From NCBI GenBank assembly GCA_965116155.1, contig OZ220488.1:1304318-1368317 (forward strand): a stretch of 64,000 bases of DNA, written 5' to 3'. Below, piece by piece: positions 10,947 to 55,235 of this stretch; position 1 is the first letter of the stretch, and each line of letters starts with the position of its first letter. The notes beneath the pieces were generated by a model. That model saw nothing but the letters and a program-made list of their open reading frames with translations, had not been told where the DNA came from and did no database searches. Origin of the DNA: Bdellovibrionales bacterium (lineage in GTDB: Bacteria > Bdellovibrionota > Bdellovibrionia > Bdellovibrionales > UBA1609). The position numbers and the translations under genes were made by a program.

Positions 10947-10961
10947 TCCAAAATTCTGGGA

Positions 10962-11094
10962 TAGAGTGCGTAAGCATAAAAGTGTTAGTGAGGGCGCCTT
11001 GGCCAGAAAGCGCAGCCTGCTGACACACCTTTAGGTGTGCAAGGCAAGCGGTCTAAGCCAGGGTGCCCTCACGCGCTGGATAAAGCGGCGGCGC
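10962..11094. repeat. 133-bp hairpin element, copy a (TAGAGTGCGTAAGCATAAAAGTGTTAGTGAGGGCGCC...CCCTCACGCGCTGGATAAAGCGGCGGCGC)
   Basis: By manual alignment it differs from copy b (39949-40081) at 2 positions. Internal stems: GTGAGGGCGCC.TGG/CCAGGGTGCCCTCAC and CACACC-TTTA-GGTGTG. Confidence 0.9.
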
Positions 11095-11173
11095 AAGAGC
11101 AGCACCCAGTGCTTTTCAAGAGAGTTTGAACGCTTTGGGCCTATTGATCGCCCCAAGCTGTCGGCGCATTGAT

Positions 11174-11303
11174 AGCTGTCTAGCGCGCAAAAACACTTTG
11201 AATGGGGCCTCGCTTGCCACCTTGGCTGGCGCCCCTTGCAGGGGCTGCCAATGTGTCTACGCCTCTGATCAAAGTGTTTTTGCTGGCGCTTTTATCCTTA
11301 CGG
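11174..11303. repeat. Y-type hairpin element Y1 (AGCTGTCTAGCGCGC - arm - core - arm' - TGGCGCTTTTATCCTTACGG)
   Basis: Arms GCAAAAACACTTTGA / TCAAAGTGTTTTTGC. Core TTGGCTGGCGCCCCTTGCAGGGGCTGCCAA. An inverted near-identical copy lies at 39413-39543 (about 3 differences by eye). Confidence 0.9.
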
Positions 11304-11521
11304 AGCAAGCGTCCTACAGAGAATTTTGCGGCCTATAAGTGCGTAAGCATTTTTGCGCGCTAGACAGCTGGCGTAAGCATTAGAGTGCCAACAAAAAGGC
11401 GTGACCTGAGCTGCCAGATTTGCTTAAAGCTATGGAGCCTTGAGTCCATAGCGCCGTCTCCTTGATGCGCCTTTGGGCGGAAAGCCTTGAGCCTTAGGTT
11501 TGTCTTCGTCATACTATAAAT

Positions 11522-14086
11522 ATGCGTAAGCACTGGGTGGTTATTTGTTGTGTGGTGCTGTCTTGTGCTTTTATTGTGGTAGCTTGCTCCGATGATACTC
11601 CGGACCCTAAAGCGCCCACTCCTGATGCGAGCGCTGCAGACTTAAGGGCCGATGTACTAAAAGACCACGACACCCTGGTGGTGCCGCGTGATGGTGAGAC
11701 GCAGTACGATTTAAAACCTTTTTTTGCCACACTGCATGGGGTGGCAAAAAGCCAAATCCGCACCTCTAACACCAAAAGCCAAGTGGAGTTTGATACAGAT
11801 GACTGCTCGGAGGATGATGAGCTTTTTGAGCTGTCGTACCAAGTGTCAGGCAAAGACAAAGAGATAAATATAGAGTGTGCGGATTCTAGCACGGGCTTGC
11901 CCGATAGCGTGGATGAGGGGTTTTTATTTTTAGCTGGCAACAAAATCTATATGTATACGCTGGATGACAACGATGGCAAAAAGGACAAAGTGCCCATCAG
12001 TGCAGGGGAGTTGTTGTTTTTTTCTGCTGCGTCTAAAAATTTAAATGCTTCTAAAAAATTGCGCCGCCAAGAGATCACCTTTAAGGGCGATGACGATGAG
12101 ACAGAAGCTTCAGAGGTAGGAGCCGTATTAGCTTTTGGTGCTGCAGGTGACGTAAAGGTGGAGGACACCACTTTAGGCACTGCTGGTGCAGCTAAGGGCG
12201 ACGGGTTTTTATTTATAGCCGTGCACTGGGGCACAGATGATGGGGCGGATGATTTTTTTGGCCTAGGTCAGGACGAAGAAGACAATGTGCAAAAAGCCCA
12301 ACCAAGCTCTGGTAGTAACAATGATGATAACGACGATAGCGGTGGCGGCGACAGTGGCGGCAACAGTGGCGACGATGATGACAATGACGGCGACAGTGGT
12401 GACAGTAGCGGCGATGGCGATGGTGCAGGTGGAAGTAACGACGATGACAGTGGCAACAATAATGGTGACAGTGATAGTGACGATGATGATGACGTGGCAG
12501 GGGCGGCTAATTTGGTGGCGCCTTTTGCTGATGCAAAGGTGCAGGCTGGCACAAGTGCGGGGAGCTTAAATTTTAGCTGGGCCTGTAACACTGCAGCTGC
12601 GGATTCTATGTACCACTTAGCTAGTGCTGAGGGCGATTTAGACAGCTGTGCTGAGGTGAGTGTTGAGAGCACGCCTTTAGCAGATCGCACATTAGCGGGT
12701 GTGCATATTTTAAAAAAAACCGCATCAAGCAATTGGTCAAAGGCGGGCTATATTGCTGCAAGAGCTGTTACTAAAACAGGGTCGCGTTTTAAAGTGGTGC
12801 TAACTGACGTTGATACAGGTATTTATCAGTATGCTGTGGCGCCCGCTAAGGGAGAGAGTGATCTAGCGTGGGGGCGTGCTCCCTATCTAACACAGGCACA
12901 GCTGTTGGAAACAGGAGCAACGGGTACCACAAAGGTTAGTAGCTGCACTCACAATAACATGCCTGGGGCAAAAGAGTTTGCCGTGCTTGGCGTACCTGCT
13001 ACAAGCATACAGCTGTGTGTACCTCGCAACAAAAGGTGTGGGTTCAAACCGGTGCCAGGTAAGGCGGCGGGTGCGGATTGTGAGTGCCAGGCGTATGGGG
13101 GTCGTGCTTCGTCTGTGTCTGGTTTTGTGTGGGATGGCAAATGCGCCATGAATCCTATATTTAAGATGCTGCGTTACACCCAGCACAATACCAAAGGGCT
13201 CACGTTAGAGGAGCAAACAAGGTTAGCTAATCCCATAGGCCATGTTAAGTTTACGCCTATGTTTGGGTTTCCACCCTATGCCTCATGGGTCGCAGTGGAT
13301 CGGCGGTGGTTAAGGGCTTTCCGCCAGGAAATTGAAATCTGTGAAAAAACAAACAATGTAGGTGTGTGGCCTTCTGGCAATGTGCAAGGCGGCAGCTGGT
13401 GTAAGGGTCAAGGGGAGCTCAGGTCACCGTGGGTGTTTCCTGCGGAGCGCTTAGCTGTAGCGGCGAATGTGCGCCATTATTTTCGTATGCGCGCGTTGCA
13501 CCTTACTTTGAATTTGGGTGATGCAAATTACTGGCGAAGCCCTTGGGTTTTGATGCAAGCGGATTCGCACACAAGGTTTTGGGGTTTTTCAGACTCTACG
13601 GATGCTACTAAGCGCGATGTATTAGAAGCGCCTAGTGGAGCAAAGGTGTTATATGGTGGCAAAGGGAATGACTGGCTATCTGATACCACTCAAACGGCAA
13701 CGAATATGACTTTTTTGGTGGATTCTTTTTCTTGGGATTTAATTACCAATTTAGAACAAAGGTTCGCGCTTGGAGGAACTAGCCATACAACTCATATTAA
13801 GTGCTATAACGCGAGCCATACGCTTAAAATGGTGATTTTAGAGAGGCCGGATAATTTTTCTACCAGCAATTGGCAGACGCACTTTCAGGAGGCGACCCAT
13901 GCTTCAGACGCTCTGCCGCCAAGCGCATGCGCATTAGCAGATGCGGGCTTAAGGCATGCAAACTGCAAAGGCGTTCGTATTGTTATTAATTCTCAAGGAC
14001 ATTTTCATTTGTCTGGCACTTTTGGCGGCTCCTTAGGTGGCACCGCAGACGCCCCCAAGCGGCTACTGTATTTTAAGTGCAATTAG
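11522..14086 (+). CDS. Large lipoprotein with acidic D/S/G/N low-complexity linker and Cys-rich C-terminal region; function unknown
   Basis: 854 aa with a lipobox (..FIVVA-CSDD). Linker at about aa 255-330 (SGSNNDDNDDSGGGDSGGNSGDDDDNDGDSGDSSGDGDG..). One RTX-like nonapeptide (YGGKGNDWL). The stop TAG lies in the motif variant TTAGAGTGTTAG. Confidence 0.6.
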   Translation: MRKHWVVICCVVLSCAFIVVACSDDTPDPKAPTPDASAADLRADVLKDHDTLVVPRDGETQYDLKPFFATLHGVAKSQIRTSNTKSQVEFDTDDCSEDDELFELSYQVSGKDKEINIECADSSTGLPDSVDEGFLFLAGNKIYMYTLDDNDGKKDKVPISAGELLFFSAASKNLNASKKLRRQEITFKGDDDETEASEVGAVLAFGAAGDVKVEDTTLGTAGAAKGDGFLFIAVHWGTDDGADDFFGLGQDEEDNVQKAQPSSGSNNDDNDDSGGGDSGGNSGDDDDNDGDSGDSSGDGDGAGGSNDDDSGNNNGDSDSDDDDDVAGAANLVAPFADAKVQAGTSAGSLNFSWACNTAAADSMYHLASAEGDLDSCAEVSVESTPLADRTLAGVHILKKTASSNWSKAGYIAARAVTKTGSRFKVVLTDVDTGIYQYAVAPAKGESDLAWGRAPYLTQAQLLETGATGTTKVSSCTHNNMPGAKEFAVLGVPATSIQLCVPRNKRCGFKPVPGKAAGADCECQAYGGRASSVSGFVWDGKCAMNPIFKMLRYTQHNTKGLTLEEQTRLANPIGHVKFTPMFGFPPYASWVAVDRRWLRAFRQEIEICEKTNNVGVWPSGNVQGGSWCKGQGELRSPWVFPAERLAVAANVRHYFRMRALHLTLNLGDANYWRSPWVLMQADSHTRFWGFSDSTDATKRDVLEAPSGAKVLYGGKGNDWLSDTTQTATNMTFLVDSFSWDLITNLEQRFALGGTSHTTHIKCYNASHTLKMVILERPDNFSTSNWQTHFQEATHASDALPPSACALADAGLRHANCKGVRIVINSQGHFHLSGTFGGSLGGTADAPKRLLYFKCN

Positions 14087-14212
14087 AGTGTTAGCCCAAT
14101 ATTCTGGGCAAAGCGCAATCTCCAGTGTAGCCCCTGTTAAGGGGCTATCACGCTGGAGATAAGCGCCCCACAGAATATTGGGCGGGCCTATAAGGCATCT
14201 ATGAGCCTGTAG
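14083..14212. repeat. X-type hairpin element (TTAGAGTGTTAG - CCCAATATTCTGGG ... CCCACAGAATATTGGG - CGGGCCTATAAGGCATCTATGAGCCTGTAG)
   Basis: Read directly. Nested stems CTCCAGTG/CACGCTGGAG and TAGCCCCT-GTTA-AGGGGCTA. Termini match the family consensus. Confidence 0.85.
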
Positions 14213-14431
14213 CCTTGTGCGATTTTTAGGCACAAGGCAACCAGAGTTGCTTAAGGGAGTCTGGACGCTGCGTGCACCCTTTGGACTTTGCACAGTGCAC
14301 CATGCCTTTACACGTGCGTGCATATTGTGCATAGTACTTTGCGGGTTTGGATTAACAAAAATCTACGTGCCACTATTGGCTCTGGAGTTTTTGTTTTTTT
14401 TCGGCATAGCAAAAAGGATATGGAATAAATT

Positions 14432-15427
14432 ATGGCACCAGAAAGAAAAGCAAGTTTAAACACACACTACACCAACACGCATGATCGTTTCTTCCGGAGT
14501 TGTTTTAAGGATAAGGGTTATACGAGGGCGCTGCTAAAATTTTGGCTGCCTCAAAGCGTGCAGGAGGTGTTGGACATTAAAGGCCTGGTTAAGCAGGATG
14601 CCTCTTTGCCTACTATAGGCAAAGAGGCAGACTTGCTAGTACGAGGAACACTTAAAAACACCAGGCCAATTTATATTTTATTAGAGCACAAGCACCAACG
14701 GCAACCCAACAAAACATACAGACAAATGGCTGATTATGGAGTAGCAATAATGCATTTCGAGTTATCTAAGCCTCAAAAGGAGCGGCCTGTTATTGTGAAT
14801 TGCATTTTTTACCATGGCAAAGACCCGTGGCAGCAAGGGTGCGAGTCCGGACTTAATACTGTAATGCACGATATAGGAGCAGAAAGCATAGACTCCATCT
14901 TGCTGCAATTCCATGTGTTTGATCTTGGGCGCCTAGATCGGTCTTTGTGGCCTTCTAAGGGTGCACTGTATTCTATTCTGTATGCGCTTTTAAAGGTGCA
15001 ACAGTTTGGTGATATGGCAGGAAAAGAAAGGCGCGAATTTTTTAGGCAAATTTTCAGCCACCTGGATGACAATGACAGTACAAACCTGATGCAGCATGTG
15101 GTAACTTATGTTTCGAGTGTTTGTGGGATAGACCATGAGGAGGTGATGGGTATGTTAAAGTCAAGTGGTGCGGCAAGAAAGGAATATTTTGAAGCTTGGG
15201 AGCAAAATATGGGTAACCCATGGAAGGAGGCTGGTCGCAAGCAAGGCCAGGCAGAAGGGCGTGCAGAGGGCCTAGAAAAAGGCCTAGAAAAAGGCCTCAA
15301 GCGAGGCCGCGCAGAGGAGCGTGTGGCAGTGGCTGCGAATATGCTCAAAAAAGGCTTGAAGCTCTCTGTAATTTCAGAAGTTACAGGCCTCTCTCAAGAC
15401 GAAATCAAGGGGATTAAAAAGGGCTAG
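14432..15427 (+). CDS. Rpn-family recombination-promoting nuclease / putative transposase (PD-(D/E)XK, YhgA-like)
   Basis: 331 aa. N-terminus HDRFFRSCF.., ..EADLLVRG..YILLEHKHQ.. (the D..E-x-K type core used by this family). Repetitive charged C-terminal tail (EGRAEGLEKGLEKGLKRGRAEER) plus an HTH-like end, typical of Rpn/YhgA-like proteins. Visibly more AT-rich than neighbours. Confidence 0.7.
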   Translation: MAPERKASLNTHYTNTHDRFFRSCFKDKGYTRALLKFWLPQSVQEVLDIKGLVKQDASLPTIGKEADLLVRGTLKNTRPIYILLEHKHQRQPNKTYRQMADYGVAIMHFELSKPQKERPVIVNCIFYHGKDPWQQGCESGLNTVMHDIGAESIDSILLQFHVFDLGRLDRSLWPSKGALYSILYALLKVQQFGDMAGKERREFFRQIFSHLDDNDSTNLMQHVVTYVSSVCGIDHEEVMGMLKSSGAARKEYFEAWEQNMGNPWKEAGRKQGQAEGRAEGLEKGLEKGLKRGRAEERVAVAANMLKKGLKLSVISEVTGLSQDEIKGIKKG

Positions 15428-15563: not shown

Positions 15564-15830
15564 GTGGGAATGAGGAAGGTGTATAGTGAGGAGCAGATTA
15601 TTAAGGTGCTGGATAGGTTGAGGTCTGGTGTTTCTGCGCAGGACGTGTGTCGAGAGATGGGTGTGAGCCGGCAGAGTTTGTATACGTGGAGGCGCAAGTT
15701 TGGTGGTCTTGGTCTGAGTGAGATGAAGAGGCTGAGGGTTTTGGAGAGAGAGAATGCGAATTTGAAGCGTCTGGTGGCGGATTTGAATTTGGATAATCAG
15801 ATACTAAAAGACAGTTTGCTAAAGTCCTAG
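15564..15830 (+). CDS. IS3-family transposase OrfA (HTH) of a truncated IS
   Basis: 88 aa with an HTH (VSAQDVCREMGVSRQSLYTWRRKF) followed by a leucine-zipper-like segment (LERENANLKRLVADLNL). Classic IS3 OrfA layout. Confidence 0.8.
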   Translation: MGMRKVYSEEQIIKVLDRLRSGVSAQDVCREMGVSRQSLYTWRRKFGGLGLSEMKRLRVLERENANLKRLVADLNLDNQILKDSLLKS

Positions 15831-15979: not shown

Positions 15980-16000
15980 AGAATCCGCAGCATGGAGTTT

Positions 16001-16557
16001 ATTGTAGTCGACGCTGAAGTATTATCTAAACGACTGTAATTATTGTTAAATTTGTTGATATTGTGGGTTCTGTTTTTGCAGGGTTTATGGTGTTTTGAGT
16101 GAAGCTGTCTAGCGCGCAATATTACCTTGAAGCCTACGTTTGCCGTCTTGGCTAGCGCCCTGCGGGCTGCCAAGATGGCTGCACTCTAAGGTTCAAGGGT
16201 AATATTACTGGCGCTTTTATGCTTACGCCAAAAACCCTGCAAAACAAGAGGCTCTCTAGTGCACAAAATATTAACCTTGCAAAAGTTCTGCGTGTTAGCC
16301 CCTTGTGCTGAAGTATGTTCTCCGGCTGACTCTGGCTTAAGTTAGAGCGCTAGTAAAATTCTCTGAAGCAAAGCGGCGGCATCCTGACAGCCTCTGCAGG
16401 AGGCGACGATCAGGGTGCCAAGCGTCTTACAGAGAATTTTGCGACCTATAAGGGATCTGCGTGCCTGTAAGATACAGTATTAAAACCCTAATGTGGCACG
16501 AGTACGCGACAGCCGGAAGCCGGAGAACATACTTCAGTCACGACTATTGTAGCAAGC
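16001..16557. repeat. Composite palindromic repeat array, copy 1 (short form)
   Basis: Collinear with 39261-40376 by manual alignment. Terminal inverted repeats TAGTCGACGCTGAAG.. / ..CTTCAGTCACGACTA. Contains Y-type element 16103-16229 and X-type element 16342-16470. Confidence 0.85.
16103..16229. repeat. Y-type hairpin element Y3
   Basis: AGCTGTCTAGCGCGC, arms AATATTACCTTGAA / TTCAAGGGTAATATT, core CTTGGCTAGCGCCCTGCGGGCTGCCAAG, tail TGGCGCTTTTATGCTTACGCC. Confidence 0.85.
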
Positions 16558-16774
16558 ATGACAAGTATGGGTGGAGTTACCCCCCCCCTATCTTAAAATT
16601 AGGCCTAAAATTAGACCCAGGGTTAGGCGAAGGTTGAGGACTAAGGTGGGTACGGCGGCGGAGACTAGGCAAAAAAATAAAAAACGCCATAAAATTTTGC
16701 ACTTTCATACTAAAAACAGTGTGGGTATTTTTGCATAAACATTGGTAGTGTTATGCAATTTTTAAGCCCAAAGT

Positions 16775-16794
16775 TTAGAGCGCTAGCGCTCTAA
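16775..16794. repeat. Perfect 20-bp palindrome TTAGAGCGCTAGCGCTCTAA (two overlapping boundary motifs) on the scoB stop codon
   Basis: Read directly. The minus-strand reading CAA GTT AGA GCG CTA GCG CTC TAA gives the ScoB C-terminus ..QVRALAL*. Confidence 0.95.
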
Positions 16795-17434
16795 CTTGGG
16801 GGTGAATTTTGAGTGGAGCGCCAGTGGCTTGGGCTACTTGCTCAGGGCTAAGGTCTGCCGCATGTTCCATAAGTACCAGCCCCTCGCTGGGGTCGACCTT
16901 TATGTAGCCATAGTCCGAAACAATTATGTCCACACATTTTTTGCCTGTAAGCGGTAAGCGGCAAGCGGGTAAAATTTTAGGCTCACCCTTTTTATTAGTG
17001 TGGGTCATGGCCACAACAACCTTTTTGGCTCCTGCAACCAAATCCATAGCCCCACCCATGCCTTTAACCATTTTGTTAGGAATCATCCAATTAGCAATGT
17101 CTCCCTCGCAAGACACCTCCATGGCACCCAAAACCGTAATATCCACATGCCCCCCACGGATCATAGCAAAAGACTCTGCAGAAGAAAAAAACGACGCCCC
17201 CTTAACAGCTGTGACGGTTTGCTTACCAGCATTTATCAAATCAGGATCCACCTGCTCGGCAGTCGGAAAAGCCCCCATACCCAAAAGCCCGTTTTCGCTT
17301 TGTATTAAAACTTGCTTTTCGTCACCAATATAATTCGCCACCAAAGTGGGCATACCAATGCCCAAATTCACTACAGACCCAGGCTGCACAAAATCCGCTA
17401 TGCGCTCTGCAATACGCTCTCTAGATAAAGGCAC
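16775..17434 (-). CDS. scoB: 3-oxoacid CoA-transferase subunit B
   Basis: 219 aa. Conserved blocks LVNLGIGMPT, SENG, GGAMDL and KILPACRLPLTG are typical of CoA-transferase family I beta subunits. Follows the A subunit. Confidence 0.85.
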   Translation of the reverse strand: MPLSRERIAERIADFVQPGSVVNLGIGMPTLVANYIGDEKQVLIQSENGLLGMGAFPTAEQVDPDLINAGKQTVTAVKGASFFSSAESFAMIRGGHVDITVLGAMEVSCEGDIANWMIPNKMVKGMGGAMDLVAGAKKVVVAMTHTNKKGEPKILPACRLPLTGKKCVDIIVSDYGYIKVDPSEGLVLMEHAADLSPEQVAQATGAPLKIHPQVRALAL

Positions 17435-19357: not shown

Positions 19358-19463
19358 AGACAGGCCGAAACTTTACCCCTCCCTGAGCCACCATTCAAGC
19401 TATATCGCAGAGGGCCATAGAGTCCTTGAGCTGTCTAGCGCTCTAAGTTAATCTGTTGGGGCT

Positions 19464-38274: not shown

Positions 38275-38374
38275 ACAACTCCTTAAACACATAAACAATA
38301 GGATTTGACATAGGTTTATGTGGTGCTCTACAAGAGTTGGTTAGAAAACACTTTTCTAGCAAGGAGCCAAGATT

Positions 38375-39948: not shown

Positions 39949-40081
39949 TAGAGTGCGTAAGCATAAAAGTGTTAGTGAGGGCGCCCTGGCCAGAGAGCGC
40001 AGCCTGCTGACACACCTTTAGGTGTGCAAGGCAAGCGGTCTAAGCCAGGGTGCCCTCACGCGCTGGATAAAGCGGCGGCGC
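39949..40081. repeat. 133-bp hairpin element, copy b
   Basis: 2 mismatches to 10962-11094. Absent from the corresponding position of composite copy 1 (about 16368). Confidence 0.9.
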
Positions 40082-40215
40082 GCTGATAGCCCCAACGGGG
40101 CGACGATCAGGGTGCCAAGCGTCTTACAGAGAATTTTGCGACCTATAAGGGATCTGCGTGCCTGTAAGATACAGTATTAAAACCCTAATGTGGCATGAAT
40201 ACGCGACAGCCGGAA

Positions 40216-40340
40216 GTGCGTAAGCATAAAAGTGTTAGTGAGGGCGCCCTGGCCAGAGAGCGCAGCCTGCTGACACACCTTTAGGTGTGCAAGGCAAGCG
40301 GCCTAAGCTAGGGCACCCTCACGTGCTGGATAGCTTTTCC
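40216..40340. repeat. 133-bp-family hairpin element, copy c (about 6 differences, different 3' tail)
   Basis: GTGCGTAAGCATAAAAGTGTTAGTGAGGGCGCCCTGG...CTAGGGCACCCTCACGTGCTGGATAG. Interrupts CAGCCGGAA^GCCGGAGAACAT, which is intact in copy 1 at 16511-16530. Confidence 0.85.
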
Positions 40341-40364
40341 CCGAAGAACATACTTCAGTCACGA

Positions 40365-43742: not shown

Positions 43743-43943
43743 GTGTGTGGTTTGGGGCGCCAGTAGTACTGTCTCTCATCCATACCAGACCTACATGGAC
43801 ACAGTATAAGCTGCACTAGTAAAAAACAGCTACGCCGCACAGCGTAAAAGCTATGCGCAAGAACGCCAGTCTTTCGTTTCACTATGCCTGCCTGGCAGGG
43901 CCCGAAGGGTCCGGATACCAGGCGGGCCAATAACAACTGGGAA

Positions 43944-43991
43944 CCATAAAAGCACATCTCACACTATTAGGTGTGAGATGTGCTTTTATGG
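43944..43991 (-). terminator. Perfect 21-bp-stem hairpin overlapping the last codons and stop of the LolC/E-like gene
   Basis: CCATAAAAGCACATCTCACAC-tattag-GTGTGAGATGTGCTTTTATGG. The stop (43967-43969) is in the loop. The arm sequence is related to the hairpin at 48606-48655 and to the ..GCATAAAAG.. repeat terminus. Confidence 0.55.
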
Positions 43992-45154: not shown

Positions 45155-45250
45155 TAGGGCGCTGGGGTTATTTGACAGCTTGTTTGACAGCTTGGTGTCT
45201 TTGGTGTTTGCTGTGGCGGTATGGGGTAACTCTGGCGGCATATAAAGTTT

Positions 45251-45961
45251 ATGGACAAGTTTACGCAAAAATTCACCCCCACTGTACAGGTTTTCACCCG
45301 CAACTCACAAGGCCTGCCTGTGGTGGGTTTTGCTTTTTCAAAAACTCCACGCGTCTCATCTAAAGTGCTGGGGCCCAAGGTGCTGGTGTTGGGGGGAGTG
45401 CATGGGGACGAGCCTGAGGGCATAGCAGCTGCTTGGGGCTTAATTGATAGCTGTTATGGCAGTATGCCTGATGTGGAGCTTTTGATTATGCCCGTATTTA
45501 ATCCTTATGGAGCCATGCATGCGCGCCGGCAAAACGCGGCCGGGGTGGATCTTAACCGCAATCTGCCTTCGCAAGACTGGAGCCCTCAGCCCACTAAGCC
45601 CAAATACCAACCGGGCCCCAAGCCTGCAAGCGAGCCCGAAACCCAAGCCCTGGTGCAGCACTTGGCTCAGGCGCAGACACGGCCGGATATTATTATCTCT
45701 CTACACTCTTGGCATCCTATGCTAAACACCAACGGAGACTGCAGCCCCGTAGTGGAGCGCATTGCAGAGGTAACGGGGTATAAAATCACGCCCGACATCG
45801 GTTACCCTACGCCGGGTAGTTTGGGCGCTTATTGTCAGGAGCTGGGGGTGCCTTGCTTGACTTACGAGATCGAGCGCGGCTTAGCATTAGAGCGGGTTAT
45901 TTTGCAGCATGTGCCTGCTTTGCAAGAGGGTTTAAAGGCCATGGCAAAAGGCCGCACTTAG
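45251..45961 (+). CDS. M14-family zinc carboxypeptidase / murein peptide amidase (MpaA-like)
   Basis: 236 aa. GGVHGDEPEG (HxxE zinc site), NPYG, GVDLNRN, LHSW. Confidence 0.7.
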   Translation: MDKFTQKFTPTVQVFTRNSQGLPVVGFAFSKTPRVSSKVLGPKVLVLGGVHGDEPEGIAAAWGLIDSCYGSMPDVELLIMPVFNPYGAMHARRQNAAGVDLNRNLPSQDWSPQPTKPKYQPGPKPASEPETQALVQHLAQAQTRPDIIISLHSWHPMLNTNGDCSPVVERIAEVTGYKITPDIGYPTPGSLGAYCQELGVPCLTYEIERGLALERVILQHVPALQEGLKAMAKGRT

Positions 45962-47175: not shown

Positions 47176-48633
47176 ATGAGTAATATGCATTTTATTGCTG
47201 GGGGTGGGGGCAAAGGGCCGGGCAATACGCCGTTGCGTGGTGCTATGGTGCCGCCGCCGTATAGGATTAAGAGCGTGGAGCCTATACGGTTGCTGAGTTT
47301 TAAGGAGCGGCAGGAGCATATCCGTGCGGCTCAGTTAAATGTGTTTGCTTTGCCGGCGCATAGTGTTTATGTGGACCTGCTTACAGACTCTGGCACAGGG
47401 GCGATGAGCCATAACCAGTGGGCGGCTATTATGCGTGGCGATGAGTCTTATGCTGGCAGTCGTAGTTTTGAGCGCTTAAGACAGAGCGTGCAAGACCTAT
47501 GGGGGCATGGGGTGGTGTTGCCGGCCCATCAAGGGCGGGGCGCGGAGCATGTGTTGTTTTCTTGTGTGCTATCTGGGGGGGGGAAGTTTTTTGTTCCCAA
47601 TAATACGCACTTTGATACTACGCGCGCTAATGTTGAGCAGCTAGGTGGCACGGCTGTGGATTTGCCTTGTAAGCAGAGTACCGATTTGCGCAGCGAGTAT
47701 CCGTTTAAGGGCAATATGGACTGCGAGGCTTTGGAGAATCTGCTAAAGCGTTACGGTTCGCAGGGTGTGCCGGTTGTGATGATGACTTTAACTAACAACA
47801 GCTGTGGTGGGCACCCGGCGAGTTTGGAAAATCTGCGTCAGGTGCGGCGCATAGTGGACTCTTACGGGGCGATGTTATTTTTGGATGCATGCCGGGTTTC
47901 GGAGAATGCGTTTTTTATTAAAAAGTACGAGCCGGGTTTTGCGCAAGTGGGTGTGCGGGAGATTTTGCGTCAAATTTTAAGCCTGGCTGATGGTTGCACG
48001 ATGTCAGCTAAAAAGGACGCCATTGTAAACGTGGGGGGTTTTATTAGTTTAAAGACTAATAAAAACCCTTTGTACGAGGCTTTGTGTGAAAAACTTATTT
48101 TGTACGAGGGCTTTAAGACCTACGGTGGTTTGGCGGGGCGCGATTTAGAAGCCATTGCGGTGGGTTTGCAAGAGGGTGCAGACGAGGCTTATTTGGAACA
48201 CCGTATAGAGCAGGTGGCTTTGCTCGCGCGTTTGTTAGAGGCTGCGGATATTAAGACGGTGCGGCCGACGGGGGGGCATGCGGTGTATGTGGATGCGGCG
48301 CACTTTTTGCCGCACTTAAAGCCAGAGGAGTTTCCTGGGCAGGCTTTGGCGGTGGCTTTATATGTAGAGGGTGGTGTGCGTGCTGTAGAGGTGGGATCGT
48401 TGATGTTTGATAAGAGTGCGGCGCATGAGATGCTGCGCTTAGCGGTGCCGCGTCGTGTTTATACCAATGAGCATATTTTGTACGTAGCAGAGTGTTTTAA
48501 AAGGCTTTACAAAAAGCGCTCTAGTATTAGGGGTGTGCGTTTGGTTAAAGAGCCTAAGTGTTTGCGGCATTTCACCGCCCAAATGGAGTGGGTCGCAGCT
48601 GAGAGGCATAAAAGCCAACTCTCACGCCTTTAG
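47176..48633 (+). CDS. Beta-eliminating lyase (tryptophanase / tyrosine phenol-lyase family, PLP-dependent)
   Basis: 485 aa. PPYRIKSVEPIRLLS.. N-terminal block, DLLTDSGT, PLP-lysine block MSAKKDAIVNVGGF. The last 8 codons (HKSQLSRL*) are encoded by the left arm of a repeat-family hairpin. Confidence 0.8.
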   Translation: MSNMHFIAGGGGKGPGNTPLRGAMVPPPYRIKSVEPIRLLSFKERQEHIRAAQLNVFALPAHSVYVDLLTDSGTGAMSHNQWAAIMRGDESYAGSRSFERLRQSVQDLWGHGVVLPAHQGRGAEHVLFSCVLSGGGKFFVPNNTHFDTTRANVEQLGGTAVDLPCKQSTDLRSEYPFKGNMDCEALENLLKRYGSQGVPVVMMTLTNNSCGGHPASLENLRQVRRIVDSYGAMLFLDACRVSENAFFIKKYEPGFAQVGVREILRQILSLADGCTMSAKKDAIVNVGGFISLKTNKNPLYEALCEKLILYEGFKTYGGLAGRDLEAIAVGLQEGADEAYLEHRIEQVALLARLLEAADIKTVRPTGGHAVYVDAAHFLPHLKPEEFPGQALAVALYVEGGVRAVEVGSLMFDKSAAHEMLRLAVPRRVYTNEHILYVAECFKRLYKKRSSIRGVRLVKEPKCLRHFTAQMEWVAAERHKSQLSRL

Positions 48634-48655
48634 GCGTGAGAGTTGGCTTTTATGC
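48606..48655 (+). terminator. Perfect 24-nt-arm palindrome overlapping the 3' end of the lyase gene
   Basis: GCATAAAAGCCAACTCTCACGCCT-tt-AGGCGTGAGAGTTGGCTTTTATGC. The right arm plus TACGC is repeated at 48749-48777. Confidence 0.6.
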
Positions 48656-48780
48656 TACGCGCTGCTATTTGGCTCGCCTGGGGACCGGCGCCGGTGGCGC
48701 CTGCCAGGCAAGCATGGTGATACGACAGTTTGGCAGTTGTGCCTTTAAGGCGTGAGAGTTGGCTTTTATGCTACGCACTA

Positions 48781-48909
48781 CAGGCTCATAGATCCCTTAT
48801 AGGCCGCAAAATAACCTTGAGGCTGCCGTTTGTCCTCTTGGCTAACGTCTCTTGCAGAGGCTGCCAAGGGACTGCTTTTGAGCTCAAGGTTATTTTGCTA
48901 GCGCTCTAA
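48781..48909. repeat. X-type hairpin element (CAGGCTCATAGATCCCTTATAGGCCGC - AAAATAACCTTGAG ... CTCAAGGTTATTTT - GCTAGCGCTCTAA)
   Basis: Read directly. Core CTTGGCTAACGTCTCTTGCAGAGGCTGCCAAGG. Ends 1 nt before the stop of the minus-strand metzincin 2. Confidence 0.9.
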
Positions 48910-48910
48910 C

Positions 48911-49690
48911 TTATGAAGGTTCCAAGGCAGTGCCGTATGCACAACGAATGGCCGCAATGTCAGAATCTCCTATGCGCTGCAAGTGCCTTGAAACTTTGGG
49001 GTTCATTATACTTTTAGGGTCTTTCGTATTGTGATTCAGGCCTAGTATATGCCCCATTTCATGAAGCATTAGATTAAGAAAGGAGTATTGTTTCCAAACC
49101 TTAGATTTGTCTTGAGTAGCATAAAACTGGAAGTCGCGATCGTTGACCCATATTTGCGACCACAACCCGGCCCGCGCATACCCAACGGCTTCGCCTTTTG
49201 CATAAGTGAAAGTAGAAGCTACAAGAGGGTCCTCCCATATAGAACCTATGCGGCCATATCCTAGCTGTACGTTGGGGCGAGCTTGGCCAAATGGATCGTG
49301 TGTTTGATCATATGGCTCCTCACGAAGGGGCTGCATTGATAAAAAAGCAGGCACCTGTGAAAAAGAGGCCACCAGCTCTAGCAGTTGGAGCATTTTGCTG
49401 GTCTTTATTTTGCTGCGCCACTCGTCGTGTGAAAAAGCGATCTCAATTTGAATGTCTGCAGGCAAGTGCTCATTCCATGCATTAGCGGCTGCTTGTATGT
49501 CTTTGTGAAAACGCTTGTCTATAGAGGGGCTCACATAAAAGACTAAGCTCTTTGTGATTTTGACATATTGAACCACTGCACCACCCCAAAAAACAGGTGT
49601 GATGTCAGGCGACGCGCAGTGTGGCTCTTTCGCCCAGATGATTTTCCCACACAGCACTGTAGCGATAAACAACAGACCAAGCTGTTTCAT
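48911..49690 (-). CDS. Secreted metzincin zinc metalloprotease, paralog 2
   Basis: 259 aa with a signal peptide. KEPHCASPDITP, HEMGHILGLNHNTKDPKSIMN, SDIAAIRCAYG. Confidence 0.8.
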   Translation of the reverse strand: MKQLGLLFIATVLCGKIIWAKEPHCASPDITPVFWGGAVVQYVKITKSLVFYVSPSIDKRFHKDIQAAANAWNEHLPADIQIEIAFSHDEWRSKIKTSKMLQLLELVASFSQVPAFLSMQPLREEPYDQTHDPFGQARPNVQLGYGRIGSIWEDPLVASTFTYAKGEAVGYARAGLWSQIWVNDRDFQFYATQDKSKVWKQYSFLNLMLHEMGHILGLNHNTKDPKSIMNPKVSRHLQRIGDSDIAAIRCAYGTALEPS

Positions 49691-49951
49691 CTTTATCTCC
49701 CATTTTTGTCACCCAATTTAAGAGCGTGGCAAAAATCGTGCCAATTGTTAAGGCTAATGAGTATGTATGGAGTGGGTTTGGCGTTTTTGTGCCCGGTGGT
49801 TAATTGCTTCCTGGCTGTCTTTTAGATCACACACAGCTGAAGCTCCAGTGGCAGGCCTCCCGCGTAAAACTTTAAAAAGTCAGCAAGGGCAAAAAGTTGC
49901 AGCTCGTTGCACTTGCCTTAGGACGAACGCAAAATTAGTACAGCGAATAAT

Positions 49952-50593
49952 TTAAATTAATTCGCACGTCTCGTACCGGATAGGTAGTGGGAGGATGGTT
50001 TGTTCTAAGCTGTCTACAGAAGAAACACTTTGCTGGAATGGGCTTGTACCTTTTGGCAAGCCGGCAAGATCAATCTCCATATCTAAAAGGCACCGAATCC
50101 CAAAAGAGCTGTCTTGCTCTTGCAATAACACTTTGCCATTTTCTACAGTCACTTGAAATAACCCATGGCACTCCGAGTAGGCCTTAGATGGCTCACCCGA
50201 TACACTCGATACGTCAAAAGTATCAATCGCAGTATCATCAGTATAAAAATATGTCGCAATACCAGTACCTACAAAAGCTATCGGTATGCTCCATCCGATC
50301 GATCTTGACCTAAAAAATTTCGTAAAAAGTCCGCCAACACCTATGCTAGCGGCAGTCAGAGTGGCAAAAAATAGGCCTACCACAAAAGGAGCCTGCCCCT
50401 TGGTCTCGCGCACTAATTCTAACTTTGCGGCTGCATCTTGGGAGCACCGCTCAAGCGTTTGCTGCATATACGCGTAGGCTATAGCCTGTTTATCCGGGCT
50501 CTTTGCAGGTGCCGCCTGTACCGAGCCAATTCCGCCAAACCCCAAAATAAAAGCCAACACACATCGATTAAAAGCTTTGCACCCACGCTTCAT
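49952..50593 (-). CDS. 213-aa signal-peptide + two-TM partner protein, copy 2
   Basis: Same length and architecture as 38375..39016. C-terminus ..CHGLFQVTVENGKVLLQE..IRCLLDMEIDL..LPLPIRYETCELI. Confidence 0.6.
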   Translation of the reverse strand: MKRGCKAFNRCVLAFILGFGGIGSVQAAPAKSPDKQAIAYAYMQQTLERCSQDAAAKLELVRETKGQAPFVVGLFFATLTAASIGVGGLFTKFFRSRSIGWSIPIAFVGTGIATYFYTDDTAIDTFDVSSVSGEPSKAYSECHGLFQVTVENGKVLLQEQDSSFGIRCLLDMEIDLAGLPKGTSPFQQSVSSVDSLEQTILPLPIRYETCELI

Positions 50594-50841: not shown

Positions 50842-51807
50842 ATGGAAGTCCAGATGAGCCTTATGAAAAATTACGCCCTTGCCTTAATATGTACAGCGAC
50901 CATGCTGCTTTGCAAAAGCCTATGGGCGAACGAACCTTATTGCGCATCGCCTGATATCACGCCCACAATGTATGACGGTGCTGTAGCTCAATATGTCACG
51001 TTTTTAGGGGGGCTAGTATTTTATGTCACTCCTGAGGTAGATGCCCGTTTTCATGCAGACATAAAGGAGGCAGCCAAAGTGTGGAACCAGCACTTGCCTC
51101 AAGGTGCTCAAATTGAAATCACCTTTTCAAAAGACGAATGGCGTAGAAAAACAAACGTAAAAAGCGGCAAAGTGATTGCGCTCATCCTAGAGCATGCCAG
51201 CCATTTGGTGGGTTTCCTAGCTCGTACTCTACGAGATCGTACAGGCCCGACTAATCAGGATCATAATAGATTCGTGCCTAGTGGTACCATAGGCCCTACG
51301 GGAATAGACCCTTTGCTTTACTGGTCGAACAGGGGCATTGAACACGATACCGCCGCATACGCAAAACCTTTTTTTTCACAAATTTTTATCAACAACCGTG
51401 ACCACCATTTGGTAAATCAAATAACAGGTACATCCCATGAGGAAGTGTTTTTTTATGAAATCATACTGCATGAAATGGGGCATACCCTAGGCCTGGATCA
51501 CAATGACCAAGATCCTAGCAGCATAATGACTAGGTACAGCGATAAGCCTACAAAAGCGCTTGCACGCTTAAGTGGGTCTGATGTTAGGGCCATTCGCTGT
51601 GCCTATGGCATGGCTCCTTTGGAGCATTTCGAGACGCCAAAGCTAGAGAGCGCTCCTGAAGATCCTTTATTAAATGATGTGGCACCTCCTAAAGGAGACC
51701 TTCCTTTGATTAGTTACAATAGAGATAAGGTGCTAAAAATTTTAGAGCAAATCGCAGCGCTAGAGTCCGAGGCTTTTAACCATCTAGGTGAATCTGAAGC
51801 ACTCTAA
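50842..51807 (+). CDS. Secreted metzincin zinc metalloprotease, paralog 3 (with about 60-aa C-terminal extension)
   Basis: 321 aa. NEPYCASPDITP, HEMGHTLGLDHNDQDPSSIMT, SDVRAIRCAYG. Start may be ATG 50854. Confidence 0.8.
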   Translation: MEVQMSLMKNYALALICTATMLLCKSLWANEPYCASPDITPTMYDGAVAQYVTFLGGLVFYVTPEVDARFHADIKEAAKVWNQHLPQGAQIEITFSKDEWRRKTNVKSGKVIALILEHASHLVGFLARTLRDRTGPTNQDHNRFVPSGTIGPTGIDPLLYWSNRGIEHDTAAYAKPFFSQIFINNRDHHLVNQITGTSHEEVFFYEIILHEMGHTLGLDHNDQDPSSIMTRYSDKPTKALARLSGSDVRAIRCAYGMAPLEHFETPKLESAPEDPLLNDVAPPKGDLPLISYNRDKVLKILEQIAALESEAFNHLGESEAL

Positions 51808-51903
51808 TTTGTATTTACTAGAAACACGAGACTTTAACGGGAATATCGCGGCTACGGGCCTTTGACGGGAGTGTGGTCGCTTCGGGCCTTTGGCCCTTCG
51901 CTA

Positions 51904-52027
51904 TAGGCTTGTAGATGCTTCATAGGTCGCAAAATTCTCTGTAAGACGCTTGGCACCCTGATGGCCGCCCCGTTGGGGCTATCAGTATGCCGTCGCTTAA
52001 CTTCAGAGAATTTTACTAGCGCTCTAA
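51904..52027. repeat. X-type hairpin element (near-duplicate of 29503-29636) whose terminal CTAGCGCTCTAA carries the pseudopilin stop codon
   Basis: ..GTAGATGCTTCATAGGTCGCAAAATTCTCTGTAAGACGCTTGGCACCCTGATGGCCGCCCCGTTGGGGCTATCAGTATGCCG..CAGAGAATTTTACTAGCGCTCTAA. Confidence 0.9.
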
Positions 52028-52680
52028 CCTTGCTCTTCTTCGCTAAAATCTTGCCAAGCTTTGAGACCACTTAAAATTTTGATGCGCCCTGTCAGAGGGT
52101 GTACGCCTAGGCTCCAGTAGTTAGGGGGATCGGCATTGCCCTGACGGAGCACTATTACAGCTTCTTCTACCAGCCCCTCAGGCAAGTAATGTATGTAGAC
52201 GATGCCTTTGTCTGCGCGCGCTTTGCTGCCAAACAGAATATGATCAAGCTCTAGCAGTGCAAACTCCCGTGGCTCTTTCATAATTTCAGTATCTTGCTGA
52301 AACTCTTTGCCCGTAGATAAGGGTTGAATGCCTTTTGTGTCCCCAGAGCTTAAAATGGCATTAGGCCCCGACTCCACCCAGTAGGCGCTTTTAATTTCTT
52401 CACCCCCTGCGCCGGAGGCCAAGCGATCGGAGGCAAAGCGAAAAGCTATGCGGTACGTGCGATCACTGAGCTTGGCCTTTTGCCTCAACTGGCGGCTTAA
52501 AACCACAATCCGCCGCAACGAGGCCCTTAGCTCGCTGTTGTTTTTGTTTAGCCGCGGGTAGGCGAGCGCTATAAGCCCCCCCATAATAGCTAAAACCAAC
52601 ATCAGCTCCATCAAGCTAAAACCAGCCGAGCTAAAACCAGCTGTCATTGGGCGCGGATCTTTGTTCCCCATACCTCTCAT
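52024..52680 (-). CDS. Prepilin-type N-terminal cleavage/methylation domain protein (GspH/FimT-like minor pseudopilin)
   Basis: G-FSLMELMLVLAIMGGLIALAYP (Gly at -1, Glu at +5). About 200 aa. Alternative start at ATG 52647. Confidence 0.7.
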   Translation of the reverse strand: MRGMGNKDPRPMTAGFSSAGFSLMELMLVLAIMGGLIALAYPRLNKNNSELRASLRRIVVLSRQLRQKAKLSDRTYRIAFRFASDRLASGAGGEEIKSAYWVESGPNAILSSGDTKGIQPLSTGKEFQQDTEIMKEPREFALLELDHILFGSKARADKGIVYIHYLPEGLVEEAVIVLRQGNADPPNYWSLGVHPLTGRIKILSGLKAWQDFSEEEQG

Positions 52681-53521: not shown

Positions 53522-54150
53522 GCGATGCGTTAAAAACCTTGAGGGTGAGCCCTGGCGTGGTGATGCTGCAGTTTTTGATTTTGACCCCCTTTTTTGTGGC
53601 GCTATTTTTGGGCTTGGGTGCTGTGGGGGTGCGACTTGTGGCTGTGGGCCAGGTGTCGCGTGCATGCCGTTTGTTAGAGCTGCATTATCAGGATCTTTTA
53701 AGCGTAGAGCTGAATCGGCTTTTAAAAAACGACAGAAAAATCAAACGCCTAAAAAGGCTTAAAAAAGCAACAAACATAATAAAAACAGGCATAATATTAA
53801 AAGCTCTTACAATAAAAGCCCTTAAGCGCTTAACACGCGAGCAGAAGAGGATATTTTTAAGGGTGCAGCATTTAGATGTGCAAAAAAAGCGCAAATCCCT
53901 GGAAGTTAGCAAGCAGATTGGGCGCGGTTTAACAATGCGCTCCTCGCCCTTGGCTTTGGGTGTGTATAGGCTTGCGGGTACGGGGCCGTATTTTGAATAT
54001 GCGTTAAAAAAAAATTTTATACACCAGCAAAAAACCCAAAGCTGGTGGGACTTGGATAAATGGGCCCTTAAGGGAGAGTGTGCGTCTAGTTTGTGGCGCC
54101 CTGAGAACCAAAAAAGCAAAGACTACAGGGCGGTGCTGTTTAATCCCTAA
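53506..54150 (+). CDS. Possible TadE/TadG-like protein
   Basis: 214 aa. N-terminal hydrophobic segment (VVMLQFLILTPFFVALFLGLGAVG) resembles the TadE-like motif. The remainder is K/R-rich and unassigned. Confidence 0.35.
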   Translation: MGAFLSDALKTLRVSPGVVMLQFLILTPFFVALFLGLGAVGVRLVAVGQVSRACRLLELHYQDLLSVELNRLLKNDRKIKRLKRLKKATNIIKTGIILKALTIKALKRLTREQKRIFLRVQHLDVQKKRKSLEVSKQIGRGLTMRSSPLALGVYRLAGTGPYFEYALKKNFIHQQKTQSWWDLDKWALKGECASSLWRPENQKSKDYRAVLFNP

Positions 54151-54247
54151 CCGTTTTGGTTAACAGTGCTGGTGCGGTTGACTTGGTTGAGGGTTTTAGT
54201 GAAGGTGGTTTTTTCCATAGGAGGCTGGTTATGAGAGGTATCTGGTT

Positions 54248-54859
54248 ATGAGAGGTATTTTATTAAAAGGCTTCTGTTTGGTGGGGCTTGGTATTGGGAT
54301 GAGCGCGCCCTCTTGGGCTGTGAGCGCTTTTTACGAGCAGTTTGCACGGGCGCAACAGGCTTTTGAAGAAGGGCAAGCGCAAAAGGCGCAGCACGAGTTT
54401 GAGTGGCTGGTAAAGAGCGCCTATAGCGAGCAGCTCTCGCCCGTGCAGAGGCAGAGCTTTTTTCACAGTTATTTAAGGTTGGCGCAGCTGTCTAAGGATG
54501 GGTTTCAGAAAAAACTCTGGCTCCTTAAGGCTATGGAAACCATGCCCCGTGTAGACCCTGATCCGGAGCTTTTTCCGCCACCCTTGTTGGCTTTGTATAG
54601 GGAGCTAAAAGCGCAGCGTCAGGGTCTGGAAACGGACACGGCTGATCAGGAGAGCCTACGCACGCGCTCCGCAACAGGTGCGCGCAAGTTAGCGCTTAAA
54701 AATACCGCCCCTAAAGCCATTAAGGCTGGGGGCAAGGGGCCTTGGGTAGCGGTGGGAGCTGTGCTGCTAGGAGGCGTGGCTTTGGGTGTTGCGCAGCATT
54801 ATGCGCGCGCGTCTTCTAACGCGCCCACTGCGCCCATGCCCAGAACCACTAGGTTTTAA
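54248..54859 (+). CDS. Secreted/C-terminally anchored protein, unknown function
   Basis: 203 aa with a signal peptide (..APSWA-VSA), a helical region and a C-terminal TM (WVAVGAVLLGGVALGVA). Confidence 0.45.
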   Translation: MRGILLKGFCLVGLGIGMSAPSWAVSAFYEQFARAQQAFEEGQAQKAQHEFEWLVKSAYSEQLSPVQRQSFFHSYLRLAQLSKDGFQKKLWLLKAMETMPRVDPDPELFPPPLLALYRELKAQRQGLETDTADQESLRTRSATGARKLALKNTAPKAIKAGGKGPWVAVGAVLLGGVALGVAQHYARASSNAPTAPMPRTTRF

Positions 54860-54860
54860 T

Positions 54861-55235
54861 GCGTAAGCATCAGAGCGCTAGCAAGACCACTGGTATGCGG
54901 CGCAGCCCCATTGGCAGCGCCTTCAGGCGCGTTAGCCAAGGAGGCAAGCAAAGCCCCCAGTGGTCTTGCGACCTATGAAGCTACAGGGCCATAGATCCCT
55001 TATAGGCCGCAGAATTTTCTGTGGGACGCTTGCTTCTGTCGTGGCCGCCTTTAGCTGTCTAGTGCACAAAAATGCTTCAGGCAGGACCACTTGTCCATCT
55101 GATGGCCCGCACCTAAAGGTGCTATCAGCTGGACTGCGTAGGGCTGAAGCCATTTTTGTTGGCACTTTTATGCTTACGCACGGAGGCTGCGCCAGGAGCG
55201 CCGCTTTATCCCAGAAAATTCTACTAGCGCTCTAA
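54861..55235. repeat. Hairpin repeat array R12 (X-type 54861-54988 inverted; X-type 54984-55235 containing nested Y-type 55053-55180)
   Basis: GCGTAAGCATCAGAGCGCTAG-CAAGACCACTGG...CCAGTGGTCTTG-CGACCTATGAAG. Then CAGGGCCATAGATCCCTTATAGGCCGC-AGAATTTTCTGTGGG...CCCAGAAAATTCT-ACTAGCGCTCTAA. Confidence 0.9.

Follow-up and report, generated by a model that had tools for sequence, protein, structure and literature searches.

What are the long hairpins that lie between the genes of this stretch of a Bdellovibrionales chromosome, and why do their stems differ from copy to copy while remaining paired? Could they be RNA genes, terminators, or copies of something that moves? The stretch, 64,000 nucleotides of contig OZ220488.1 (positions 1,304,318 to 1,368,317, assembly GCA_965116155.1) and hereafter the window, is the source of all repeat evidence given here. 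The initial annotation described a family of intergenic hairpins of about 125-135 nt with conserved ends and many co-varying arm pairs, and folds, alignment and covariation controls bear this out. The elements are mobile DNA, a unit that moves with both ends attached, because copies are nested within one another, because the same site is found filled and empty, and because they lie at the 3' ends of genes. They probably form a lineage-specific family of non-autonomous mobile elements in the class of small palindromic intergenic repeats that includes REPIN, ERIC, Correia and other elements resembling miniature inverted-repeat transposable elements (MITEs). The family is new, its class is known, and its existence is real and well supported.

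About 22 copies or fragments occur in the window, where they account for about 3.0 kb or 4.7% of the sequence. Each unit of about 125-135 nt begins with an asymmetric left end, AGCTRTCTAG or the variant ..CCTTATAGGYCG, to which the X type prefixes CAGGCTCRTAGAT. There follows a hairpin of about 95-100 nt with an outer stem of 12-16 bp, a G/C-clamped apex, and internal loops that carry conserved CGCTTGCC and GCGCTTT motifs. The right end, CTAGCRCTYTWATGCTTACGC, is common to all types and is degenerate in its outer part in 'short' copies. This outer part, GCGTAAGCAT, is found 18 times with at most one mismatch (5.8 expected), a number reached in 0 of 100 shuffles, and the right-end 12-mer CTAGCGCTCTAA is found 11 times exactly, where about 0.008 occurrences would be expected from length alone. 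The outermost bases are unpaired, and pairing sets in 10-28 nt from the left extremity and 12-20 nt from the right one. Hairpins of 20-40 nt are missing from the termini, where a 3-bp mini-stem in TGCTTACGCA is all that forms. At the foot of the stem stands the tetranucleotide CTAG or ATAG, with GTAG in some X left ends only.

Is the hairpin itself conserved? Folded as RNA, each of the 14 contiguous elements counted as intact yields one long hairpin (the X12 chimera and the weak copy W1 are set apart, and Y2b was not among the elements folded), as do X6 and X4 once their nested inserts are cut out. The z scores of the RNA folds range from -2.8 to -8.4 for intact elements and reach -13.2 for X12, W1 being the sole non-significant one at -1.0. 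As single-stranded DNA (ssDNA), the eleven elements folded score between -3.1 and -9.7 against dinucleotide shuffles. In one form or the other, seventeen elements fold into the long hairpins that the initial annotation had read from the letters. All eleven of its arm pairs are present, displaced by 1-9 nt, and the pair at 55011/55211 is real, its 200-nt gap being due solely to a Y element (55053-55179) inserted in an X element.

We aligned all 17 elements, over their full length, with MAFFT on sequence alone, without structure fitting. From this alignment RNAalifold predicts an outer stem of 12 bp and an apical stem of 5 bp, with changes on both sides at 16 of 18 predicted pairs; single columns hold up to five pair types (for example UA:8 AU:4 GC:3 CG:1 GU:1). 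Cells are paired in 91.6% of cases, compared to 69.8% after shuffling and 34-57% with a slid partner. Double-change cells number 69 (19.6 shuffled, 11-28 slid), and the covariation score is 0.664 (0.244 shuffled, 0.109-0.222 slid), which 0 of 500 shuffles reached. With one representative per subfamily (11 sequences), 89% are paired versus 67% shuffled, and the observed value was reached in 0 of 1000 shuffles. Compensated differences can be followed between individual copies: Y1 has GCGCGC...GCTGGCGC and Y2 has GTGCAC...GTTGGCAC, flanking a conserved TG bulge, and the apex is GCCTC/GAGGC in X3 versus GCCCC/GGGGC in X4. The asymmetric TG bulge is kept in Y1, Y2 and Y3, and internal loops are also conserved. 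The hairpin is preserved through extensive sequence change. Intact copies include the following.

X7, 14083-14213, minus strand: intact X type; 77 bits in the covariance-model search described below; ssDNA z = -8.6; its terminal TTAG provides the stop codon of the open reading frame (ORF) 11522-14086.
Y3, 16103-16228, plus strand: intact Y type in the loop of another hairpin (16069-16093 / 16225-16249); 95.6 bits.
X3, 16342-16469, minus strand: intact X type within a 230-nt element (16308-16537); 100.8 bits; empty reference for the C2 insertion.
X1, 29503-29635, plus strand: intact X type with full right end, between the ETF-alpha and 3-hydroxyacyl-CoA dehydrogenase genes; 110.7 bits; ssDNA z = -4.3.
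X9, 39019-39144, plus strand: intact, with left end AGCTGTATAGGTCG; 78 bits.
X5, 48778-48910, plus strand: intact X type; 89.1 bits; its right end and the stop codon of ORF 48911-49690 (minus strand) are 1 nt apart.
X2, 51902-52028, plus strand: intact X type; 92.1 bits; its right end provides the stop codon of ORF 52024-52680 (minus strand).
X8, 54861-54982, minus strand: intact, in head-to-head orientation to X6, its start immediately following the stop codon of ORF 54248-54859; 105.6 bits.

Upstream of X1 and X2 (29460-29502 and 51860-51901) lie about 40 nt common to both, which contain small G/C hairpins (GGGCC...GGCCC). This is either a longer X unit in that subfamily or a case of joint movement with a neighbouring mini-hairpin.

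Are X, Y and C separate families? In the alignment the X left end (..GCCTTATAGGYCGC) coincides with the Y left end (AGCTGTCTAGCGCGC), and the left end of X9 is intermediate between the two. The three copies of the C type begin with AGCTATCCAG or CGCTTTATCCAG. The alignment shows that X, Y and C are subfamilies of a single homologous element that have diverged, and some copies are chimeras. The X and Y ends that the initial annotation kept separate are both present, but as homologous variants of one left end; its 'modular arms' do differ in sequence and pair, but the term overstates what are diverged subfamilies, and its copy list missed the C type, Y4 and the X12 chimera. We distinguish at least 11 subfamilies, whose stems differ in sequence yet stay paired. 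Across 11 representatives the mean pairwise identity is 60-61% in the ends, 47-48% in the outer arms, about 40% in the interior and 55% at the apex, and between copies of one subfamily the identity is 86-98%. From the alignment we built a covariance model, which recovers 15 full copies in the window (76-112 bits) and a few weaker partial copies, and nothing convincing inside genes.

How did the copies reach their present places? Several lie inside other copies, and the hosts and their inserts can be separated.

X10, 10933-11340, minus strand: X-type host with a truncated left end and two nested inserts, C1 and Y1; reconstructed and aligned to X3/X4.
C1, 10964-11082, minus strand: nested in X10; covariance-model match of 93.8 bits.
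Y1, 11174-11303, plus strand: nested in X10; covariance-model match of 111.6 bits.
Y2b, 39370-39809, plus strand: Y type at the host position of Y3; its halves match those of Y2 at 95% and 94% (BLAST); holds Y1b and Y4.
Y1b, 39407-39543, minus strand: nested in Y2b; 107.7 bits.
Y4, 39620-39747, minus strand: nested in Y2b; 76.3 bits.
X4, 39920-40166, minus strand: X type interrupted by C2.
C2, 39949-40068, minus strand: nested in X4; 95.5 bits.
C3, 40215-40340, minus strand: C type in the right terminal repeat of an element with 20-bp terminal inverted repeats (TIRs); paralogous empty site at 16518-16537; 96.9 bits.
X6, 54981-55235, plus strand: X type with Y2 nested near its apex.
Y2, 55053-55179, plus strand: nested in X6; 87 bits.

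Removal of the insert restores a hairpin of 134 nt in X6 (without Y2) and of 136 nt in X4 (without C2). Filled and empty versions of a site can be compared directly. The empty stretch 16470-16560 has a 90%-identical paralogue, 40167-40381, that carries C3 as a clean addition of 124 nt with no duplication of flanking bases, and X3 is the empty counterpart of X4, to which C2 adds about 119 nt. Y2 and Y2b have exact boundaries, AGCT...ACGC, in common and unrelated flanks, and no direct repeat flanks Y1, Y2, Y3 or Y4. Y3 and Y2b occupy host copies of about 90% identity, in which the identity extends through the conserved ends and collapses inside; this reflects either independent insertions at exactly one position or an exchange of the interior between fixed ends.

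The comparisons benefit from a composite island of about 550 nt that is present twice (16000-16552 and 39267-40373) at 84-92% identity with different nested contents, a natural filled/empty comparison. Within it, at 16308-16537 and 39880-40373, lies an element of about 100 nt (230 nt with X3) with perfect 20-bp TIRs, CTGAAGTATGTTCTCCGGCT; one copy of it contains X3, the other both X4 and C3. Beside the host hairpin of both island copies (16252-16290, 39833-39871) stands a solo left half of a Y-type element (CTCTAGTGCACAAAATATTAACCTTG) that has no partner arm.

Two other views of the moving unit were considered and set aside. Movement of the hairpin alone into a CTAG-containing target, as in IS5-like elements, is rejected, since Y2, Y2b and Y3 carry conserved ends into unrelated flanks. 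A duplication of 3-4 bp (CTA or CTTA) around X-type copies is indistinguishable from conserved end sequence and finds no support in the one clean filled/empty pair.

Is active transposition needed at all? Segmental duplication and gene conversion might have copied the palindromes, and template switching during replication, not selection, might have kept the arms matched. The duplicated island is an example of the first process. The apex of X4 is that of X1 while the rest of X4 matches X3, which suggests conversion, and the X12 chimera, whose arms come from different subfamilies and mispair in the middle, shows recombination between subfamilies. Because of X4 and X12, gene conversion and template-switch correction probably act as well. 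However, they cannot explain the conserved bulges, the conserved internal loops and the unrelated flanks: blanket correction of palindromes would erase the TG bulge of Y1, Y2 and Y3 and the internal loops, identical-ended units stand in unrelated flanks (Y2 versus Y2b; C3 versus C1 and C2), and the ends are more conserved than the arms. An origin of the family by duplication and conversion without transposition is unlikely.

Could the elements instead serve the genes that they follow? They are present in all five convergent intergenic regions and in many tandem ones. Among the spacers between divergent genes one only is occupied, by a hairpin-less relic. Both orientations relative to genes occur. 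The right end holds TAG and TAA in two frames on each strand, and it provides the stop codon, sometimes with the last three to five codons, of the ORFs that end at 10946, 14086, 16775, 36496, 52024, 63436 and 63433; other elements begin 0-6 nt past a stop codon. The partial and degenerate copies, several of which take part in this, are listed here.

Ymin, 11341-11369, minus strand: ends only, the left joined to the right without a hairpin, AGCTGTCTAGCGCGCAAAAATGCTTACGC.
W1, 11370-11480, minus strand: degenerate; the right end TTGGCACTCTAATGCTTACGC is good, but the hairpin is weak and a left end cannot be recognised; 22.3 bits, E = 0.0013; fold z = -1.0.
Right-end pair, 16775-16794, no strand assigned: palindromic, without hairpin, TTAGAGCGCTAGCGCTCTAA; encodes the C-terminus and stop codon of ORF 16775-17434 (minus strand).
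End composite, 19390-19446, plus strand: hairpin-less, an X-left-like stretch CAGAGGGCCATAGAGTCCTT and then a Y-left end AGCTGTCTAG fused to CGCTCTAA.
End-only relic, 19429-19446, plus strand: AGCTGTCTAGCGCTCTAA, within the preceding composite.
X12, 34556-34689, plus strand: chimera bounded by a right end on each side, its arms from two different subfamilies; 34.1 bits; internal mismatch loop, ssDNA z = -9.7; its halves are 93% and 98% identical to 39101-39202 (BLAST).
Solo right half, 34690-34722, plus strand: directly after X12.
Solo right arm and right end, 36470-36507, plus strand: CCGCAGAATATTGGGCTAGCGCTCTAA; stop codon of ORF 36496-37419 (minus strand), with a solo 12-mer at 36496.
X11, 39148-39202, minus strand: right half only (right end and arm), 98% identical to the right half of X12; 23.6 bits.
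Solo right-end 12-mer, 63425-63436, plus strand: CTAGCGCTCTAA; stop codons of the convergent ORFs 62996-63436 (plus strand) and 63433-63990 (minus strand).

One further ORF touches the motif at its other end: an 854-aa ORF (no Pfam match) starts with ATGCGTAAGCAC at 11522-11533, a one-mismatch copy of the repeat's terminal 10-mer that overlaps the start codon. A second family of palindromes, of about 50 nt, is found at 43943-43992 (arms 94% complementary), 48606-48655 (96%) and also 48747-48779. It overlaps the stop codons of ORFs 43967-45268 (minus strand) and 47176-48633 (plus strand), its arms differ between loci and are still complementary (GCATAAAAGCCAACTCTCACGCC versus ACCATAAAAGCACATCTCACAC), and its outer part, TTGGCTTTTATGCTACGC, is similar to the main family's right end.

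A primary role at gene 3' ends, as terminators, as mRNA-stabilising hairpins or as a bidirectional stop-and-hairpin cassette whose spread is secondary, would accord with the occupancy of the convergent and tandem spacers and with the elements that adjoin or supply stop codons. REP (repetitive extragenic palindromic) elements are known to stabilise upstream mRNA. But no T-tract follows the hairpins, and in a scan of 28900-40500 terminator-like sites, like promoter-like ones, do not exceed shuffled expectation. Nor does a terminator role require up to seven copies piled and nested in a single spacer (39017-40364), and insertion into other copies destroys the hairpins of the hosts. We consider a role of this kind improbable as the primary one.

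Are the elements genes for a structured non-coding RNA, with functional single-stranded motifs and stems that covary under selection on the RNA? Variable paired stems together with more conserved unpaired ends and internal-loop motifs are a classic signature of RNA. Yet the copies are nested in one another, their sites are polymorphic for presence and absence, they take both orientations relative to neighbouring genes, and the promoter- and terminator-like signals just mentioned are not enriched. On the top strand mismatches of the type G.T number 7 and those of the type A.C 13, so neither transcript strand is favoured. No Rfam family matches. An RNA gene family is accordingly quite unlikely.

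That the elements are attC-like sites of an integron-like system, folded single strands recognised by a tyrosine recombinase, is scarcely credible: their size (about 60-140 nt in attC), their place directly after ORFs, the retention of structure while sequence varies, and a right end with CTCTAAC / GTTAGAG that resembles attC core sites are all reminiscent of attC, but the two ends are neither inverse core sites of each other nor complementary core sites R'' (RYYYAAC) / R' (GTTRRRY), the neighbouring genes are not cassettes but large housekeeping genes (of up to 1302 aa) that run in both directions, the elements nest in one another, and the 64-kb window contains no integrase.

How, then, might a mobile family of this kind propagate? 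An enzyme encoded elsewhere in the genome would act in trans, reading sequence at the ends and shape in the body. Copies that no longer fold would cease to propagate, which would account for the covariation. Gene 3' ends and the loops of other copies are the landing sites, and the stop codons in the right end would make insertion into the last codons of a gene tolerable. Copies would decay by deletion of the hairpin and leave end-only relics of 12-30 nt; the relics have the form expected from hairpin loss between short direct repeats (CTAG or CTAGCGC) at the hairpin foot. It is less likely that they are target sites instead of decay products, because the conserved ends travel with the hairpin.

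Which enzyme could do this? A single-strand-DNA mechanism, driven by an HUH tyrosine enzyme of the RAYT or IS200/IS605 type or by a functional analogue, is favoured because there is no duplication in the clean comparison, the ends are asymmetric and the hairpin is required. We propose it tentatively, as a possibility, because REP-like terminal palindromes and a conserved left target are lacking and the window holds no such gene. One might also think of an enzyme that is neither HUH nor DDE, reads DNA shape plus short asymmetric end motifs, and mobilises or maintains the family; one candidate would be the lineage-specific expansion of at least ten diverged Rpn/YhgA-like nucleases, with element subfamilies matched to paralogues. 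The interior could then also be swapped between fixed ends in the manner of a cassette, as the occupation of one host site by Y3 and Y2b suggests. This idea is very doubtful.

The gene behind it encodes a YhgA/Rpn-like PD-(D/E)XK protein ('Transposase_31') at 14432-15427 on the plus strand, 218 nt from X7. At least nine further paralogues, 50-84% identical, are all located on the same 1.61-Mb contig, and the nearest homologues elsewhere are 24-29% identical, one short local match apart. Close to the C-terminus the paralogues carry varying numbers of 4-residue repeats (GLEK, GLKK, GRVE), as PMC10400941 reports for Rpn toxins. A distant homologue is located in a defence island (CBASS, AbiEii, patatin). 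Because of this island and the variable repeats, a role in defence is more likely for these genes than one in moving hairpins, and the same two observations disfavour the Rpn-like gene as the mobilising enzyme.

Several points weigh against the family being mobile elements of the proposed kind. A Pfam scan of the ORFs in the 64-kb window found no transposase or recombinase able to act on the family ends, and no RAYT (Y1 HUH) gene. The sample consists of about 22 copies from one window, and related copies account for some of the covariation counts. Part of the arm matching could arise without selection, through gene conversion between copies or template-switch correction of quasi-palindromes. 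The boundaries of C-type inserts vary by several nt between events, the termini lack REP-sized palindromes of their own, and no conserved target of 4-5 nt is found beside the left end (flanks TTT, TGA, GAT, GGT, GCC), so that the rules of IS200/IS605 and RAYT are not visibly followed.

Does the family have relatives? The window gave 0 Rfam matches at the gathering threshold, and at a permissive threshold only a chance match of mir-191 to the X12 palindrome. The densest repeat island (1.35 kb) had no BLAST match among plasmids and phages. The pattern GCGTAAGCATNARAGYGCYA, searched over GTDB species genomes and viral and metagenome contigs, returned isolated single matches, none with a second family motif, and the motif strings of the family retrieved unrelated oligonucleotides only from the literature. 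The covariance model found no match in 73 kb comprising three ETF neighbourhoods from two relatives and one locus with an Rpn homologue. The initial annotation could name no matching family, and this holds for Rfam, plasmids, phages, GTDB genomes, viral and metagenome contigs and literature motif strings.

The genome from which the window derives belongs to a deep lineage that has hardly been sampled and is distantly related to Bdellovibrionota. Outside this genome the best protein match, to Bdellovibrionota metagenome-assembled genomes (MAGs), is about 50% identical. For ETF-alpha, the next best relatives are only 49-50% identical, and the named ones are mostly MAGs of Bdellovibrionales, Oligoflexia or Pseudobdellovibrionaceae. 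The window has about 50% G+C, G exceeds C on the plus strand across about three quarters of it, most genes lie on the plus strand, and there are no tRNA genes in it. Its ordinary chromosomal genes, as identified by Pfam scan, include ExbB/ExbD, an AddAB-like helicase-nuclease, ETF alpha and beta, 3-hydroxyacyl-CoA dehydrogenase, a fused methylmalonyl-CoA mutase, TruB, thiolase and CoA transferases.

Other features of the window deserve mention. A DUF6088 gene followed by an AbiEii nucleotidyltransferase toxin gene (34819-36394, plus strand), with repeat fragments on both sides, looks like an AbiE-type toxin-antitoxin pair. Three genes for matrixin-like metallopeptidases (37492-39016; 48911-50593, minus strand; 50842-51807), with 68-76% DNA similarity, form a local paralogous gene family; two of them are adjoined by 213-aa ORFs of unknown function (38375-39016, 49952-50593) that are 77% identical over about 260 nt. 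At about 15570-15830 (plus strand) a short ORF resembles, judged from its translation alone, the helix-turn-helix and leucine-zipper part of an IS3-family orfA; it is an apparent fragment with no orfB after it. An AT-rich inverted repeat (24818-24911; 31 nt, 81% complementary, 32-nt spacer) lies within the AddA-like helicase gene.

What does the family contribute? It is a well-defined family of hairpin repeats that comes from a deep and hardly sampled lineage, and extrapolation from 4.7% of the window would give several hundred copies in the 1.6-Mb genome. At least 11 subfamilies that have ends and fold in common, with stems at about 48% identity, constitute a clean natural experiment on structure-based recognition of mobile DNA, and the nested insertions provide a relative timeline of activity. 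Genome annotation should mask or model the family, the ends of which create the stop codons and last codons of several ORFs. Should the complete genome prove to have neither a HUH nor a DDE partner, the enzyme that mobilises the family would be the discovery of interest.

Where does the family stand among known systems? It is unusual in the asymmetry of its ends, in how many stem variants coexist and in how densely copies are nested. ERIC/IRU, Correia/NEMIS and RUP elements are about 100-170 nt long, form end-to-end hairpins, occupy intergenic and 3' sites in either orientation, have nested and truncated variants, and can supply stop codons or affect transcripts. The present family resembles them in these respects. 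In contrast, those elements have true TIRs and usually a duplication of TA or another target from a DDE transposase, whereas the extreme ends here are not inverted repeats, the filled/empty site carries no duplication, and there is no sequence similarity. More generally, the family matches a DDE-derived MITE in being small, non-coding and multi-copy, but lacks TIRs at its extreme ends and a target-site duplication (40215-40340 versus 16518-16537, an addition of 124 nt).

With IS200/IS605 and its derivatives (PATE) the family has asymmetric ends and the absence of target duplication in common, but it forms one long hairpin, not two subterminal ones. The proposed working logic is that of attC sites and IS200/IS605 ends: shape and a small number of conserved bases would be recognised, and sequence change in the stems tolerated. 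The clusters in single spacers (39017-40364, 10933-11480) resemble BIMEs, being mosaics of a few conserved modules in varying combination and orientation; BIMEs, however, are alternating 35-nt REPs and linkers, whereas these mosaics arise from 125-nt units inserted into each other.

The likeness to REP, BIME and REPIN elements drawn in the initial annotation is supported by copies that nest, by sites that occur both filled and empty, and by the placement of elements at gene 3' ends. In REPINs, as described by Bertels and Rainey, the ends are invariant and the spacer is less conserved, its key features being length and the ability to form a hairpin, and compensatory changes are common (PMC3116915). 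The substrates of RAYT HUH enzymes are REPs folded as single strands, and a GTAG motif is required (PMC8266576). The present elements are likewise short, non-coding, intergenic and high in copy number, with conserved ends and a variable spacer that compensatory changes are observed to keep as a hairpin. In the one clean filled/empty comparison there is no target duplication, and in the data searched the family is confined to a single lineage. The differences are structural. The ends are asymmetric (AGCTGTCTAG.. versus ..TTTTATGCTTACGC) and not two inverted REPs, only the X12 chimera having symmetric ends; the stem foot is CTAG or ATAG, where the GTAG of REPINs is invariant; the element is longer, at 125-135 nt, with at least 11 coexisting subfamilies; and no RAYT gene is seen within the window. 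Because its ends are not two inverted REPs, and because it appears to lack REP palindromes and an invariant GTAG, the family fails the structural definition of a REPIN, yet it shares the REPIN logic. Conserved ends around a compensating hairpin spacer are characteristic of the REPIN class and not unprecedented, and the REPIN is the closest known family.

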